Assembly: GCA_038203565.1 (NCBI GenBank)
Contig: JBBRDV010000034.1
Span: 1-13,408 of the forward strand
Length of the DNA stretch: 13,408 nt
Reading direction: 5' to 3'
From: Atribacterota bacterium
GTDB lineage: Bacteria > Atribacterota > Phoenicimicrobiia > Phoenicimicrobiales > Phoenicimicrobiaceae
The notes under the pieces are model-generated. The model saw only the letters and a list, made by a program, of their open reading frames with translations, was not told the DNA's origin and did no database searches. The first letter of the stretch is position 1. Each line of letters starts with the position of its first letter. Positions 120 through 7,622 of the stretch are shown here, piece by piece. The translations under genes were made by a program, and so were the position numbers.

Positions 120-252
120 AGCGGACTCAAAGATGTATATCAGTTAATCTTGAAGATATTCGAATTGTGAATAAATAGTTTATTGATCTAAAATTTTCTA
201 TTACTATATCCCTTTTAAAAGAGCAAAACGTTTCCAATAAGGGGAGCCAGAC

Positions 253-298
253 ATTAAGATAGGCAGAACTTCTTTATTGAGGTTCTGCCTATCTTAAT
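253..298. terminator. Strong hairpin, probable (bidirectional) intrinsic terminator
   Basis: Perfect 17-bp inverted repeat ATTAAGATAGGCAGAAC (253-269) / GTTCTGCCTATCTTAAT (282-298). It starts 2 nt after the minus-strand stop at 301-303. U-tails are poor. Confidence 0.65.
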
Positions 299-300
299 TC

Positions 301-402
301 TTAACAGATCCCAATTTCTTCTTCTAATCTTCGGTACACCTTTTCAGTTTCATCACTGATACAAAAGTTGCGAAACTCGTCTACTTGCCTCCACCAAACC
401 AT
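301..402 (-). other. 33-codon ORF, candidate severed C-terminal tail of an integrase/recombinase
   Basis: MVWWRQVDEFRNFCISDETEKVYRRLEEEIGIC*. The WWR codons are the antisense of CCTCCACCA, and a hairpin directly follows the stop. Confidence 0.45.
387..396 (+). mobile_element. Putative att core (attR): displaced tmRNA/tRNA-like 3' end GCCTCCACCA
   Basis: Matches the typical tmRNA acceptor 3' end (GCCUCC-A-CCA) with no T-arm or RNA gene body upstream. A hairpin follows. It separates accessory remnants from housekeeping genes. Confidence 0.55.
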
Positions 403-403
403 C

Positions 404-447
404 AATATTAAAGCCTTTCAGGTGTTTTGCTAAAAGGCTTTAATATT
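404..447. terminator. Hairpin just after the CCA end, possible original terminator of the target RNA gene
   Basis: Perfect 15-bp inverted repeat AATATTAAAGCCTTT (404-418) / AAAGGCTTTAATATT (433-447). Confidence 0.55.
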
Positions 448-629: not shown

Positions 630-2333
630 ATGGATTTCGAAGAGTCGAAAGTAACTGTTAATTTCATTCAGGAGATTATTGATCAAGACAAAAAAACGAA
701 TAAATACCATGGAAGGATTCATCTCCGGTTTCCCCCGGAACCTAATGGGTACCTGCACATCGGGCACGCGAAGTCTATCTGCTTGAATTTTGGTTTGGCT
801 GCACAAAATGGTGGTCTATGCAATCTCCGCTTTGACGATACAAACCCCAGCAAGGAAGATGTGGAGTATATTGATTCCATAATCTATGATGTTCGGTGGC
901 TGGGATTTAACTGGGATGACAGGCTTTTTTATGCTTCCGACTATTTTGAAAAGATGTATGATTGCGCCGTTCTTTTAATTAAAGTAGGTAAGGCTTATGT
1001 GTGCGACCTGAGCCCTGAAGAAATCAGGAAGTACCGGGGAGGTTTCAAGGAGCCGGGAAAGGGAAGCCCATATCGCAGCCGATCTGTGGAGGAGAACCTG
1101 GATCTATTTCGACGTATGCGTGCTGGTGAATTTCCTGACGGTTCCCGGGTGTTACGGGCTAAAATTGACATGTCTTCACCTAATCTGAATATGAGAGATC
1201 CTGTTCTTTACCGCATTTTAAGGGCTACCCATCACCGAACGGGGGATAAATGGTGTATTTATCCTATGTACGACTATGCTCATCCTCTTGAAGATTATTA
1301 CGAAAAGATTACTCATTCTGTTTGTACTCTGGAGTTTTCCGACCATCGTCCATTATATGACTGGGTTCTTAATACTTTAAGCCTGCCAGGTCCACCCCAG
1401 CAGATCGAATTTGCCCGTCTTAACTTAACTAATACGGTAATGAGTAAACGGAAGCTCCGTAGGCTGGTGGAAGAAGGTTATGTAGCAGGATGGGACGACC
1501 CTCGGATGCCAACCATAGCCGGTTTACGGCGCAGGGGTTATACTCCGGAGTCTATCCAAAATTTCTGTGACCGTATCGGTGTATCTAAGAGTAACAGTAT
1601 GGTGGATGTCCGTTTTCTGGAACATTGTATCCGTGAGGATCTGAACTTGAGGGCTTCTCGGGTTATGGGGATACTGCACCCTTTAAAGCTGGTTATTGAT
1701 AATTATCCTGAAGATATGGTGGAAGAGATGGAATCAGAAAATAATCCTGAGGATCCTACTGACGGAACGCGCAAAATGCCTTTTTCCAGGATTCTTTACA
1801 TTGAACGGGAAGACTTTCATGAAGACCCGCCGAAAAAGTATTTTCGTCTGGCTCCCGGTGGTGAGGTCAGGTTAAAGAATGCCTATATTATCAAAGGTGA
1901 AGGATTTATTCGGGATGAAAAAACGGGAGAGATAAAAGAAGTGCACTGTACCTACGACCCGGAAAGTAAAAGCGGTAAACCGGGTGCTAAACGTAAAGTA
2001 AAAGGGACTCTACACTGGGTTTCCGCAGATCATGCTTTGAAAGCGGAGGTGCGCTTATACGACCATCTTCTACTGGACCAGAACGAGGGAACGGAAGAGC
2101 AGGGGGAAGAGAAAGATTTTATAAAACAGCTTAACCTAAATTCCCTGGAAGTGTTAGCTGATTGTTTGGTGGAACCAAGTTTAGCGGGAGCGGCTCCTGG
2201 AAACAGATACCAGTTCATGCGAAAAGGTTACTTCTATGTTGATTCCGATTCAACGTCGGATAAACTAGTGTTTAGCCGAATTGTATCTTTACGGGATACT
2301 TGGGATAGAATCCTTAAAGCTGAAAAAAATTGA
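630..2333 (+). CDS. glnS: Glutamine--tRNA ligase (567 aa, no YqeY extension)
   Basis: [16 protein letters not shown] (HIGH), [35 protein letters not shown] (KMSKS equivalent), [31 protein letters not shown] at 616-624. Confidence 0.97.
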
Positions 2334-3440: not shown

Positions 3441-4952
3441 ATGAAAAAGATATTCTGCATAATTTTAATGACAGTTTTATTGATTATTTTATTCCTTGTT
3501 TCTTCAGTTTTAGCTCAATCTTCAGAAATAAAGATATTATTAGATAATAACCCCCTCGAAACCGTTGTCCCTTCAGTTATCGAGAATGACCGATTATTTG
3601 TTTCAGCTCGTAATATAGTAGAAGCTTTAGGTGGAAGGATTACCTGGTTCCCGGCTTTAAAGTTAATGACTATAAATATTAATAGTCGCACAGCCCGTTT
3701 AGTAATAGATGAACCTTCTTTGGAGATAGATAAAAAGGTAATTCCTCTGGAAATGCCAGCCAGAATTATCGATAATCGGGTAATGATTCCCTTGGAATTA
3801 ATTAAAATTGTTGCCGAAGTAGATATAAAATGGGATAATCAGGCCAAGACTTTATTTATTAACACCATAAGACCTTATCTGTTAAAAGTTAGAAGTTATT
3901 CTTATCCCGATAAGACCAGGGTGGTGATAGATTTATCTGAAAAGACAGAATTTAGAGCAGATAAATTAATAAACCCGGATAGAATTTTTATCGATATAAT
4001 GGGTTCTGTTGCAAAATTAGAAGATACCTCAAAGCAGATAAAGATAGATGATGGGGTGATTAAAACAGTAAGAACAGCTCAATTTAACCAGGAAATTATC
4101 AGAGTTGTATTTGACCTTTATCGGGAAGCCAGATATGAACTTTTCAGTCTTATTGAACCTGATAGGGTAGTGATTGATATATTCACATCAGGTGAAAAGG
4201 CAGCCATTACTGAAACTCTTCCCCCCGCTAAGCCCGAAGAAAAGCTTATCCCTAAACCCGAAATAACCGGGAAGAGAGTAGTAATTATTGACCCCGGACA
4301 TGGTGGAAAAGACCCGGGAGCGATCGGACCTACCGGCTTGAGGGAGAGCGAAGTTGCTTTAGGAATCGCTCTATATTTAGAGAAATTGTTAAAGAATGCA
4401 GGCATTCCTGCCTATTTAACCAGAACTAAAGATGAGTTTGTTTATCTGGAAGATAGAACAAATTTTGCTAACCAGAAAAATGGTTTTGTATATGTAAGTT
4501 TACATGCTAATTCAGTTTTAAATCATCGTCCTAGTGCTAAAGGAATAGAGACCTTCGTATTAAGTTCCAAATATATCGGTGCTTCTGCTAAAGATGTAGC
4601 AGATAGAGAAAATAGAGCTAGCAGGGCTCATCCCGAGTTAGATACAGATTTAGCTAAAATCATCGCTGACCTGGAAGAGAGCGCTAATATCAACTATAGT
4701 TTTGATTTTGCTGATATTATTCAGACAAAATTAGTAGAGTATCTAAAATTAGAAAATAGGGGAATAAAACAAGCTCCTTTTGTTGTATTAAAAGGAGTAA
4801 ATATGGTGGCAGTTCTTGCAGAAGTTGCTTTTATTTCCAATCCTGAAGAGGAAAAATTATTGAAAACCAATAAGTTTAGAGAAAATGCCGCTCAGAGCTT
4901 GTTTGAAGCAATAAAATATTATATAGAAAATACCCCTGATAATGGTGGATAG
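3441..4952 (+). CDS. N-acetylmuramoyl-L-alanine amidase: signal peptide, copper-amine-oxidase-N-like domain, AMIN domain, Amidase_3
   Basis: Signal peptide ending VLA-Q. AMIN-like TRVVIDL...NPDRIFIDI...RVVFDL. Zn/catalytic motifs IDPGHGGKDPGA, E, SLHANS, EVAFISN. Confidence 0.93.
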   Translation: MKKIFCIILMTVLLIILFLVSSVLAQSSEIKILLDNNPLETVVPSVIENDRLFVSARNIVEALGGRITWFPALKLMTININSRTARLVIDEPSLEIDKKVIPLEMPARIIDNRVMIPLELIKIVAEVDIKWDNQAKTLFINTIRPYLLKVRSYSYPDKTRVVIDLSEKTEFRADKLINPDRIFIDIMGSVAKLEDTSKQIKIDDGVIKTVRTAQFNQEIIRVVFDLYREARYELFSLIEPDRVVIDIFTSGEKAAITETLPPAKPEEKLIPKPEITGKRVVIIDPGHGGKDPGAIGPTGLRESEVALGIALYLEKLLKNAGIPAYLTRTKDEFVYLEDRTNFANQKNGFVYVSLHANSVLNHRPSAKGIETFVLSSKYIGASAKDVADRENRASRAHPELDTDLAKIIADLEESANINYSFDFADIIQTKLVEYLKLENRGIKQAPFVVLKGVNMVAVLAEVAFISNPEEEKLLKTNKFRENAAQSLFEAIKYYIENTPDNGG

Positions 4953-4963
4953 GATAAATTATT

Positions 4964-5590
4964 ATGGCGAAAAATAGAAAGTCGAAGAAGAAAAAAAATA
5001 ACCTGAAAATCATCTTTATATTATTAATACTCGTAGTAATTGTAATTTTTAGCTATACATTATTCAATAAGCTTATTGTCCCTATCTGGGAAAGATATAC
5101 AGAAAAGCCTATTATTACCAAGGAAGTCCCTTATAAGGAAGAAGAAATAAAAGAAGTTCAACCTGTGCCGATAGAAGAGATGGTCGAGGTGAACCTTTAC
5201 TTTTCTGATTCTCAAGCAATGTACTTGGAGCCTGAAAAAAGGAAAATATCCCAAACCCCTTCTTTGGCCAGACAAGTAGTTATTGAGCTGATAAAAGGTC
5301 CGGAAAATTCCGAACTTTATCCTACAATTCCTCAAGGAACTCAAGTCAATGAAGTATATATTGCTGATGATATTGTCTATATAGACCTGTCTGAAGAAAT
5401 ATTTAAAAATCATCCTGGAGGAAGCAGTGGTGAATTGATGACCATCTATTCTATAGTCAATACTTTAACTGAAATCCCTCCGATTAAAGGTGTGCAAATA
5501 TTAGTGGGAGGAAATGAGAAGAATAGTTTAGTCGGACATATAGACATCAGTATGCCTTTACTTAGAGACAAAGATTGGATTAAACCATAA
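4964..5590 (+). CDS. GerMN domain membrane protein
   Basis: Basic N-tail plus one TM. Domain motifs VNLYFSD...LEPEKR, ELIKGP, IPQGT, YIDLS, GGSSGE, IYSIVNTLTE, VQILVGG. Confidence 0.9.
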   Translation: MAKNRKSKKKKNNLKIIFILLILVVIVIFSYTLFNKLIVPIWERYTEKPIITKEVPYKEEEIKEVQPVPIEEMVEVNLYFSDSQAMYLEPEKRKISQTPSLARQVVIELIKGPENSELYPTIPQGTQVNEVYIADDIVYIDLSEEIFKNHPGGSSGELMTIYSIVNTLTEIPPIKGVQILVGGNEKNSLVGHIDISMPLLRDKDWIKP

Positions 5591-5636
5591 AATTGAATGA
5601 ATAACATGGAAAATCAGGGAGTGATGGAGACTAATA

Positions 5637-6089
5637 TTGCTAGACTTATCTCTACTTTTTAGAAATAAGATTCTAATAATTGCTTTTATAACCTGGGTTG
5701 TAAATCAGGGCTTAAAGCTAATGGTATTTTATATTACCGAAAAAAAATGGGATATGAGGAGATTTGTTGGGGCAGGAGGGATGCCCAGCACTCATTCCGC
5801 CCTTTCTGTGTGTGTAGCTACCACCATTGGCTTAAAAGAAGGTTGGGACTCCCCTTTATTTGCTTTAGCTATAGTCATAGCTTTTATTATTATGGCTGAT
5901 GCAGCCGGGGTAAGGAGAGAGACAGGAGAACAGGCTAAAGTATTAAATAAAATTATTTTAGAATTTTTTGAGGAAAGAAAGATCAGAGATAAAAATTTAA
6001 AAGAATTAGTTGGACACACTCCTTTTGAAGTTATAGTAGGAGCCTTTACAGGGATTGTAATGGCTTGGATATTATGCGCGGTAATTTAG
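5637..6089 (+). CDS. Divergent PAP2 family protein (DUF212)
   Basis: GGMPSTHSA, DAAGVRR, LKELVGHTPFEV motifs. TTG start preceded by GGAG. Confidence 0.92.
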   Translation: MLDLSLLFRNKILIIAFITWVVNQGLKLMVFYITEKKWDMRRFVGAGGMPSTHSALSVCVATTIGLKEGWDSPLFALAIVIAFIIMADAAGVRRETGEQAKVLNKIILEFFEERKIRDKNLKELVGHTPFEVIVGAFTGIVMAWILCAVI

Positions 6090-7067: not shown

Positions 7068-7622
7068 GTGAAGTTTTTGAACATAGAAGAAAATGGTATT
7101 TTAATCTTTATTTTATTTATTAGCGGGGGGATAGTCTGCCTGATTCTCTATATCAGGATAAGCAATTGGTTGAGGACTAAGAGATTAAAGAAGAGATTTT
7201 CTAAAAGCAGGCAGGCAGAAAAAGAAGCAGAGAAAATATTGAGGAAAAACGGTTATGCGGTTATAGATGCTCAAAAAAGCAAACCACTCCTTGTAACTAT
7301 CGGTGACAAGATTCATCGCTACTTAGTGCGGATAGATTATTTGGCGAGGAAGAAAGGGAAAATCTACGTGGTAGAAGTTAAAAGTGGAGAGAAAATACCC
7401 TATATTACTAACCGGGAGACCAGAAGACAGATGTTAGAATATTACCTTGCCTACCGACCGAGCGGTATTCTTTTATTAAATATGAAAAATAAGAGTATTT
7501 CTGAAGTAAAGTTTCAATTTGAAAGTACCATGCGTCAAAAGACAATAAAGATAGTATATTTTTTGGCAGGAGCAATTTTTAGTTTGGTCTTATATTATTT
7601 ACTTCAAGGAGGGCGGAGATGA
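7068..7622 (+). CDS. Uncharacterised membrane protein with a PD-(D/E)XK nuclease-like domain between two TM helices
   Basis: TM1 GILIFILFISGGIVCLILYI; motifs AEKEAE, RIDY, VEVKSG, RRQMLEY; TM2 IVYFLAGAIFSLVLYYLL. The true start may be TTG 7077, since GGAG at 7065-7068 is well spaced for it. Confidence 0.75.
   Translation: MKFLNIEENGILIFILFISGGIVCLILYIRISNWLRTKRLKKRFSKSRQAEKEAEKILRKNGYAVIDAQKSKPLLVTIGDKIHRYLVRIDYLARKKGKIYVVEVKSGEKIPYITNRETRRQMLEYYLAYRPSGILLLNMKNKSISEVKFQFESTMRQKTIKIVYFLAGAIFSLVLYYLLQGGRR

Follow-up and report, generated by a model that had tools for sequence, protein, structure and literature searches.

The left end of the window, i.e. the whole stretch of 13,408 nucleotides analyzed here (contig JBBRDV010000034.1, hereafter C34, of the 1.97-Mb Atribacterota assembly GCA_038203565.1, which comprises 218 contigs and is 99% complete by markers), most probably carries an attR scar left by elements that integrate at the 3' end of ssrA and are driven by a large serine recombinase (LSR) whose gene runs across its own attP. 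We assign this reading a probability of roughly 0.8. It has been observed that the LSR gene contains an att site, that near-identical LSRs end in two kinds of C-terminus, that a tail is stranded at attR and that there are units devoid of the enzyme. In the mechanism that we propose, the LSR gene would lie on the strand opposite the RNA gene and across its own attP. When the element is integrated beside ssrA, the enzyme would end in 11 residues of ssrA antisense, as is shown in relatives, and its own tail of about 31 residues would be left at the far junction, which is the one present in the window. On the excised circle, or where the element lies behind the junction of another one, the frame through the shared core would be open and the LSR would end in the tail. 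Repeated integration and loss of the recombinase module would then lead to the observed rows of small recombinase-less units bounded by tail, core and terminator.

The coordinates of the features are collected in Table 1. The minus-strand frame from 402 to 301 reads M-V-W-W-R-Q...I-G-I-C-stop (33 residues, stop codon at 303-301), and its WWR codons are the antisense of GCCTCCACCA (387-396), which is found in a single copy in the window, where 0.01 is expected from 200 shuffles, and which is identical to the last 10 nt of the only tmRNA gene (ssrA) of the host, on contig C105. A hairpin with arms at 253-272 and 279-298 and 17 perfect pairs begins 2 nt past the stop of the tail. The preliminary description of this DNA, based on the WWR frame, the tail, its stop, the hairpin 2 nt further on and an ATG at 400-402, is exact on all these points; it had overlooked another junction, at 127-249, and the hairpin at 404-447, which resembles a terminator. 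As the ssrA-type tail has five further copies in the host genome (C1, C77, C104, C29 and C54) and matches in 18 of the 41 genomes searched, host included, it is not a chance frame; the matches, up to 12 per genome, are always open frames of 15-99 aa. No Pfam family was found for the 33-aa tail peptide. ARAGORN and Rfam gave no RNA gene in the window or in positions 1-1000 (16 sub-threshold matches), and a structured RNA spanning 241-396, considered as a candidate, was dropped on that basis.

Table 1. Features of the window, and RNA-like elements of the related arrays.
Feature	Coordinates	Strand	Basis
Predicted stranded LSR C-terminal tail, with a stop after 31 codons counted from the first W; arm of the ssrA-type attR on the element side	301..396	-	Frame translation; tail family on LSRs P0143, P0127, P0066, P0030, P0019
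Att core GCCTCCACCA, repeating the final 10 nt of ssrA; antisense = WWR	387..396	+	tmRNA match; X5 contig
Hairpin of the family behind ssrA and tRNA-Asn; host-side arm, putative terminator	404..447	+	Folding, comparison
17-bp hairpin, likely two-way terminator; in register with the tRNA-Asn-type core, not with the tail's stop	253..298	.	Folding, junction spacing
Second att core, tRNA-Asn 3'-end type, GGGGAGCCA	241..249	+	Sequence; LSR reads into tRNA-Asn antisense in G009:C366
Second stranded tail, WLPLL class, 40 codons plus stop, drifted	127..249	-	Same class on P0022, P0147, P0148
ATG in the host-side arm; fortuitous	400..402	-	Two host copies; 0/113 metagenome junctions (among the matches listed)
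Promoter-like motif past the 404-447 hairpin, which we take to be sigma-H-like; its 14-mer has 38 exact copies in the genome	450..464	+	Motif count
glnS, glutaminyl-tRNA synthetase; native downstream neighbor of ssrA	630..2333	+	Pfam; ssrA-glnS adjacency in relatives
Glycine riboswitch-type leaders	L108:2239-2481, 3964-4071, 5543-5651; L054:793-1030		Rfam
c-di-GMP-I riboswitch matches at the start of two units; CRISPR-DR7-like repeat (one); group II intron fragments in arrays	L045:1058-1144, L044:11063-11145, L045:821-857, L054:4975-5279		

Since ssrA directly precedes glnS in relatives, the junction in the window is predicted to be the outer (attR) one of an ssrA island. We compared 24 glnS loci of the family, with a flank of at most 1.5 kb each (less than 150 bp in four). 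The empty site, with ssrA directly upstream of glnS and the core 73-579 bp before the gene, is found in five of them; three (the window, G016 and G024) display a tail-and-core junction before glnS, and 16 have neither ssrA nor junction in this flank. The whole layout can be followed on contig C3 of G015, where ssrA, about 25 kb of cargo and a tail junction succeed one another, glnS lying about 4 kb further. On this contig (5562-53016), tRNA-Asn and ssrA point towards each other across 47 kb; each has a row of junctions of its own, and the glnS block lies in the interval. A contig assembled from sequencing run X5 matches the window from exactly position 387 rightwards and bears 1611 different letters before it. 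The 404-447 hairpin resembles the one behind ssrA in the host, G011, G012, G013 and G015, and is therefore assigned to the host-side arm; its antisense is similar to the LSR codons at the KPF motif, but in the window this stretch is out of frame and interrupted by a stop. Further along the window, a 184-aa ORF (7068-7622) between tlyA-like and NAD kinase genes gives weak Pfam matches to nuclease-like families (Hjc, NERD, Cas4), none of which reaches the cut-off, and its ends are predicted to be hydrophobic.

The preliminary description anticipated that a walk upstream would lead to a plus-strand ssrA or tRNA gene with a minus-strand recombinase reading into its antisense in the WWR frame. This is the case in the relatives G009 and G010 and not at the ssrA of the host, which is followed by a hairpin and then by a transposase-like ORF (IS), the WWR frame being closed 7 codons upstream. 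The island itself cannot be walked leftwards because C34 ends 240 bp left of the tail junction, and no contig end overlaps it exactly by 25 nt or more. Among the 218 contigs of the host assembly, no LSR of the tail's clade and no PF07508 match was found; the sole PF00239 match, on C175, is cut by the contig end and only 29% like the LSR clade. This stretch (G000:C175:1-1777, L004) holds the unrelated serine recombinase fragment together with small phage-like genes. The three PF00589 matches of the host (C7, C1:70591 and C95) do not lie beside junction-like sites. As the enzyme was not found in the host genome, the scar is probably inert there unless an LSR-bearing helper element arrives; as a single site, the window junction would thus be an enzyme-less scar.

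The owner of the tail is predicted to be an LSR from its relatives. In three genomes of the same genus as the host, an LSR passes through the same core in the same WWR frame: G009 (C176) has a 498-aa LSR, on the strand opposite ssrA, that crosses the core as WWR and stops 11 residues on in ssrA antisense; a partial LSR of G010 has the same end at a contig edge, and one of G005 reaches the core at the contig end. Sister LSRs read into the antisense of tRNA-Pro (G015:C2) and tRNA-Asn (G009:C366). In the class of about 500 aa (P0027, P0066, P0143, P0001), the Resolvase, Recombinase and zinc ribbon domains all score above Pfam cut-offs. The YxRvS motif contains the catalytic serine of serine recombinases, and its Y6, R8 and S10 are invariant in 22/22 sequences. 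A split integrase with attP inside its own gene, as put forward at first, is thus borne out by the in-frame LSRs of relatives and by natural LSRs that carry the tail family; the enzyme is by its Pfam domains a serine recombinase instead of the tyrosine integrase of Mx8 or SSV1 type to which it had been likened. Upstream of the LSR lie an HTH_3 gene and a Toprim primase-like gene (G009:C176, G015:C2).

This clade is broad. A search for LSR relatives, with one genome per species, returned 409 stretches encoding them. Among the best 80 of these 409 loci, which span many phyla and include relatives labelled Atribacterota, 59 have an LSR that terminates within or next to the 3' end of a tRNA lying on the other strand; no tRNA was detected in 15, four have no usable ORF and two lie at an edge. 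Viral contigs gave no match to the junction pattern and one distant LSR. On their other strand, the codons of ssrA-type LSRs around KPF form a U-tailed hairpin just behind the CCA (-25 and -28 kcal/mol for the two stretches folded), and the LSR gene of this type appears to supply the terminator of the RNA. The KPF-codon hairpin is seen just behind ssrA in L064 (G010:C234) and L097 (G009:C176). In LSR-free genomes, the terminators behind ssrA or tRNA-Asn resemble the last-codon stretch of the LSR.

The tail itself is found on natural enzymes. We examined the C-terminal form of 117 LSR proteins: 56 have the ssrA-antisense form, 14 a non-RNA tail and 10 are partial there, the rest having other RNA-antisense forms or odd ends. 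Comparison of the tail with recombinase C-termini, as the preliminary description had recommended, yields matches to the ends of natural LSRs (P0143, P0127, P0066, P0030 and P0019). Five of the 117 carry the window's tail family: P0143 (513 aa, tRNA-Pro type, tail 19/30 identical, 63% over 30 aa), P0127 (376 aa, partial, tRNA-Asn type, 23/38 identical, 61% over 38 aa), P0019 (220 aa), and P0063 and P0066 (502 aa, ssrA type), which end 18 residues into the tail (12/18 identical for P0066, 67% over 18 aa). A search with the window frame gave 31 proteins, among which P0030, P0033 and P0037 continue in frame from the C-terminal part of an LSR into the full tail; a phmmer match, P0028, proved to be a repetitive, unrelated protein and was discarded. 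Since natural proteins join LSR sequence to the tail in frame, the attP frame does occur open in nature, and a single tail family serves LSRs for three targets, namely ssrA, tRNA-Asn and tRNA-Pro. The tail-bearing LSRs are sequences without genomic context, so that an origin from a circle and one from a tandem junction look alike. Against the tail belonging to these enzymes, there is among the 117 proteins no full-length ssrA-type LSR with a complete tail; P0092 is a partial ssrA-type LSR with another tail class, and a search for long proteins with the tail of P0019 gave none.

These proteins also bear on the place of the crossover. The att identity is limited to the last 10 nt, and judging from the LSR variants the crossover would fall within the CCA end or close to it; P0132, in which an ssrA-type arm and tRNA-Pro antisense meet at the CCA end, suggests the same. 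Two Pro-type LSRs, in L067 (G009:C124) and L068 (G006:C196), run out of frame into an Asn-type tail, the join having the same position in both genomes. This would represent an off-register cross-site event, and it counts against our main reading. The WLPLL tail class ends the full-length LSR P0022 and the fragments P0147 and P0148. At least four tail classes are found on near-identical LSRs, which argues against a precise structural role of the tail. In two AlphaFold models the tail forms helices of low confidence (pLDDT about 55 and below 40).

We then asked how the tail has been conserved. A pattern scan of metagenomes gave at least 118 loci, corresponding to at least 116 distinct junctions. 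Among the matches listed, the tail is 30-32 codons long in 107 of the 112 junctions with enough sequence. The codon test was applied to codons 12-29, which lie outside the search pattern, in 96 distinct main-class sequences among these matches, leaving out 12 tails of another class and three with less than 60% identity. Divergence from the majority base in these 96 sequences, again among the matches listed, amounts to 0.135, 0.095 and 0.233 at first, second and third positions, respectively; a single tail of the 96 contains a stop, versus 20.5 +/- 3.9 in neutral simulations. Omega is about 0.64 over 48 disjoint pairs of the same matches (p = 0.001; p = 0.09 for the nine closest pairs), p-values that are overstated because the sequences are related. 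We take these signals, which are not independent, to indicate a moderate purifying selection on the tail as a protein.

A possible role for such a tail is that the form of the LSR bearing it would be the more active or the more stable one, an assumption to which we give even odds. If so, an incoming circle would integrate efficiently and the integrated copy would be damped. The same anatomy can be read without any switch: the LSR would be complete at its KPF/WW motif and work with any end, the tail being kept only as a DNA arm of attP that supplies a stop, under a weak constraint against harmful extensions. We regard this as the less probable view, yet one with real weight. Indeed, the RNA-antisense form is by far the commonest (56 of the 62 ssrA-type ends), several unrelated tails are tolerated and, as mentioned above, the tails fold with low confidence; McMurdie et al. 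(PMC3146451) also mention this trivial reading. Such a view accounts poorly for codons 12-29 among the matches listed, whose frame and length are preserved and whose variation is highest at third positions, and for tail stops far rarer than neutral. The usual att half-site is shorter than the reach of these codons.

The hairpin at 253-298 had been taken at first for the terminator of the tail. This interpretation, in which the hairpin would travel with the tail, is doubtful. Its arm begins next to the stop and it folds on both strands, and a hairpin of this type is also seen after the C77 tail, as well as in 10 of 111 metagenome junctions (matches listed) that have no recognizable tRNA-Asn core. 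However, among the same matches, it is present after 29 of the 111 tails and absent after 82; where an Asn-type core follows, the spacing from hairpin to core is identical in 19/19 cases, whereas the spacing to the tail's stop varies from 9 to 22 nt in the same 19. Moreover, contigs of runs X2 and X5, from one study, skip 194-298 and keep the tail (runs with small shares were left out of this contig comparison). Most plausibly, the hairpin serves the Asn-type junction as its terminator arm, and it may also stop minus-strand transcripts. As to the ATG at 400-402, the preliminary description allowed that it could express the tail as a separate 33-aa peptide. It is highly improbable that the tail is either such a peptide or a chance frame over an ordinary terminator region. 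The ATG is shared with the C1 copy, and gene callers give many products of 32-107 aa over such junctions; on the other hand, the other junctions among the matches listed lack it at that place (0/113; any in-frame ATG in seven), a simple promoter scan gave nothing aimed into the tail except one weak 9/12 match at 582-553, and the peptide is the end of natural LSRs. The ATG is thus fortuitous.

In the host genome, a profile search gave 23 junction-like sites on 15 contigs, one of which is the tRNA-Asn gene's own end. Junction doublets are seen there at G000:C1:148565-148842 and G000:C162:2536-2622, a longer tRNA-Asn 3' fragment is also present, and C104 has three junctions around single genes. 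In relatives, successive junctions are spaced 1-3 kb apart. After removal of two units that belong to duplicate loci, we counted 70 junction-bounded units with a median interior of 1.2 kb, 41 of them with one ORF; the LSR motif was found in none of the 70. Cargo ORFs are co-oriented in 89 cases out of 96, pointing the way of the RNA gene, and 27 of 45 units open with a terminator and their own promoter-like motif. The cargo (26 ORFs in four arrays) comprises HicAB, HEPN plus nucleotidyltransferase, Fic, methyltransferases, hydrolases and repeat-domain lipoproteins. Upstream of the metagenome junctions, no LSR body was detected (0/116 among the matches listed, 38 loci having only 300 bp of flank); the last LSR codons are kept at 28 of 113 junctions among these matches, nearly all seen cut at one identical point, and the others have only a terminator. 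The ssrA-type and Asn-type junctions are often 140-170 nt apart (27/28 in two arm classes), and their order in the window doublet is reversed with respect to the usual doublets. Many units share a leader of about 270 nt (12 units aligned), in which Rfam scores glycine riboswitch aptamers, tandem in two; this leader and a terminator-like hairpin stand ahead of differing lipoprotein-like genes, and it would be a shared regulatory front end on varying cargo.

Under our preferred reading, in which the LSR crosses its own attP, these units would be remnants of integrations that have lost the enzyme. One would also wonder whether they are working cassettes, excised and re-inserted singly by an LSR acting in trans, instead of dead CIMEs that move only together with a neighboring element. 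This is a tentative alternative that we hold less probable, on a par with the absence of any switch. The units are small, regular and co-oriented, the kept LSR codons are nearly all cut at one point, and X2 and X5 contain two tails 605 nt apart; in addition, pairs alike over at least 500 nt up to the junction have different neighbors across it in 10/10 non-duplicate pairs (duplicate-locus pairs and short pairs, which mostly share the riboswitch leader, were left out). Different neighbors are nevertheless expected from accretion and deletion as well, and some of the 10 pairs are host flanks instead of units. No circle of a recombinase-less unit was seen in contigs, which drop rare forms, so that this absence is no evidence, and no directionality factor was identified. 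For serine integrases, the usual requirement is attP x attB, or else attL x attR in the presence of a directionality factor. Going further, an integron-like cassette system could be run by LSRs for ssrA, tRNA-Asn and tRNA-Pro that cross at the shared CCA end, which seems to us unlikely. If it existed, any stranded tail would act at once as landing arm and as spare C-terminus; an element behind a cassette junction would gain the tail while integrated, become active and move single cassettes in trans, and one beside the RNA gene would be damped, so that array position, and not a directionality factor, would set activity.

Whatever the part played by the tail, several natural LSRs of the same 90% cluster differ only in their C-terminus (P0027/P0066; P0014/P0143; P0017/P0127 or P0117), and the question of completion by the circle or by a neighbor is directly testable because such pairs exist. 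Since the clade is broad and sits at tRNA and tmRNA ends, it is relevant to direction control in serine integrases and to landing sites in the engineering of bacterial genomes. From the arrays one can also see how uncultured sediment bacteria, whose LSR relatives are labelled Atribacterota, gather accessory genes. Our literature search, which covered few subscription papers, gave none on the exchange of tails between LSRs of tRNA ends, nor on arrays of this kind in Atribacterota.

A parallel can be drawn with several known systems. Mx8 and SSV1 encode tyrosine integrases with attP inside int, and integration changes or removes their C-terminus; here attP likewise lies inside the integrase gene, and the differences are that the enzyme is a serine recombinase and that only its last 30 residues or so are exchanged. 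Integrons contain rows of small co-oriented units, in changing order, with toxin-antitoxin, methyltransferase, hydrolase and lipoprotein cargo. The present arrays resemble them in their small co-oriented units, similar cargo and changing order; unlike integrons, they have no IntI beside them and probably no attC sites, which in integrons recombine as folded single strands; their junctions are double-stranded att scars of a serine recombinase, and many of their units open with both a terminator and a promoter-like motif of their own.

Tycheposons, as far as the accessible text of the report on them goes, are tRNA-targeted cargo elements with primase-type genes, whose tandem insertions split by partial tRNAs seed islands, and 910 of 937 use tyrosine recombinases (bioRxiv 10.1101/2020.12.28.424599). 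The elements described here share with them tRNA targeting, cargo, primase-type genes and tandem insertion; they differ by a serine recombinase with att inside its own gene, and that text makes no mention of such an att site. CIMEs and microCIMEs, in the excerpts at our disposal, are att-flanked, lack recombination genes, are stacked at one target and are decayed ICE/IME derivatives (PMC7563491). Our units likewise keep att and lack recombination genes; unlike CIMEs as presented in those excerpts, their junctions carry a coding tail that appears to be under selection, and there are no conjugation genes in the loci examined.

The closest system is that of the Dehalococcoides ssrA islands, which, in the sections of the paper that we could consult, lie in tandem behind ssrA, are bounded by repeats of the ssrA 3' end and include 15 islands without an integration module (McMurdie et al. 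2011, PMC3146451). According to these sections, DsiB is a reverse-strand serine recombinase of about 500 aa whose gene overlaps attL and finds its stop codon in ssrA or in a neighboring island, and the enzyme may reach full function only when its gene is on the circle or follows an island supplying the 3' fragment; the split-gene idea is thus already in print there as a hypothesis. What is new here are the natural tail-bearing proteins, the selection on the tail, its sharing across three targets and the dense arrays. Dehalococcoides is absent from the best 80 of the 409 LSR-relative loci, and the likeness to DsiB is drawn from its description and not from its sequence. As in the DsiB islands so described, a direct repeat of the ssrA 3' end marks the borders (10 bp here versus 20 bp there), tandem arrays are formed, and the 3' end of a reverse-strand LSR overlaps attL, in G009, G010 and G005 and not in the host assembly. 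Insertion is reported there in the T-loop of tmRNA, and here identity is limited to the last 10 nt. Unlike in those islands, sister enzymes at tRNA-Asn and tRNA-Pro share the tails and the units measure about 1-2 kb. Despite the like workings, we do not class the present elements as DsiB islands, because the neighbors of the LSR are HTH_3 and Toprim genes instead of the six-gene module (dsiA and the adjoining dsiB, recF, parB, mom and a large gene) given for these islands.
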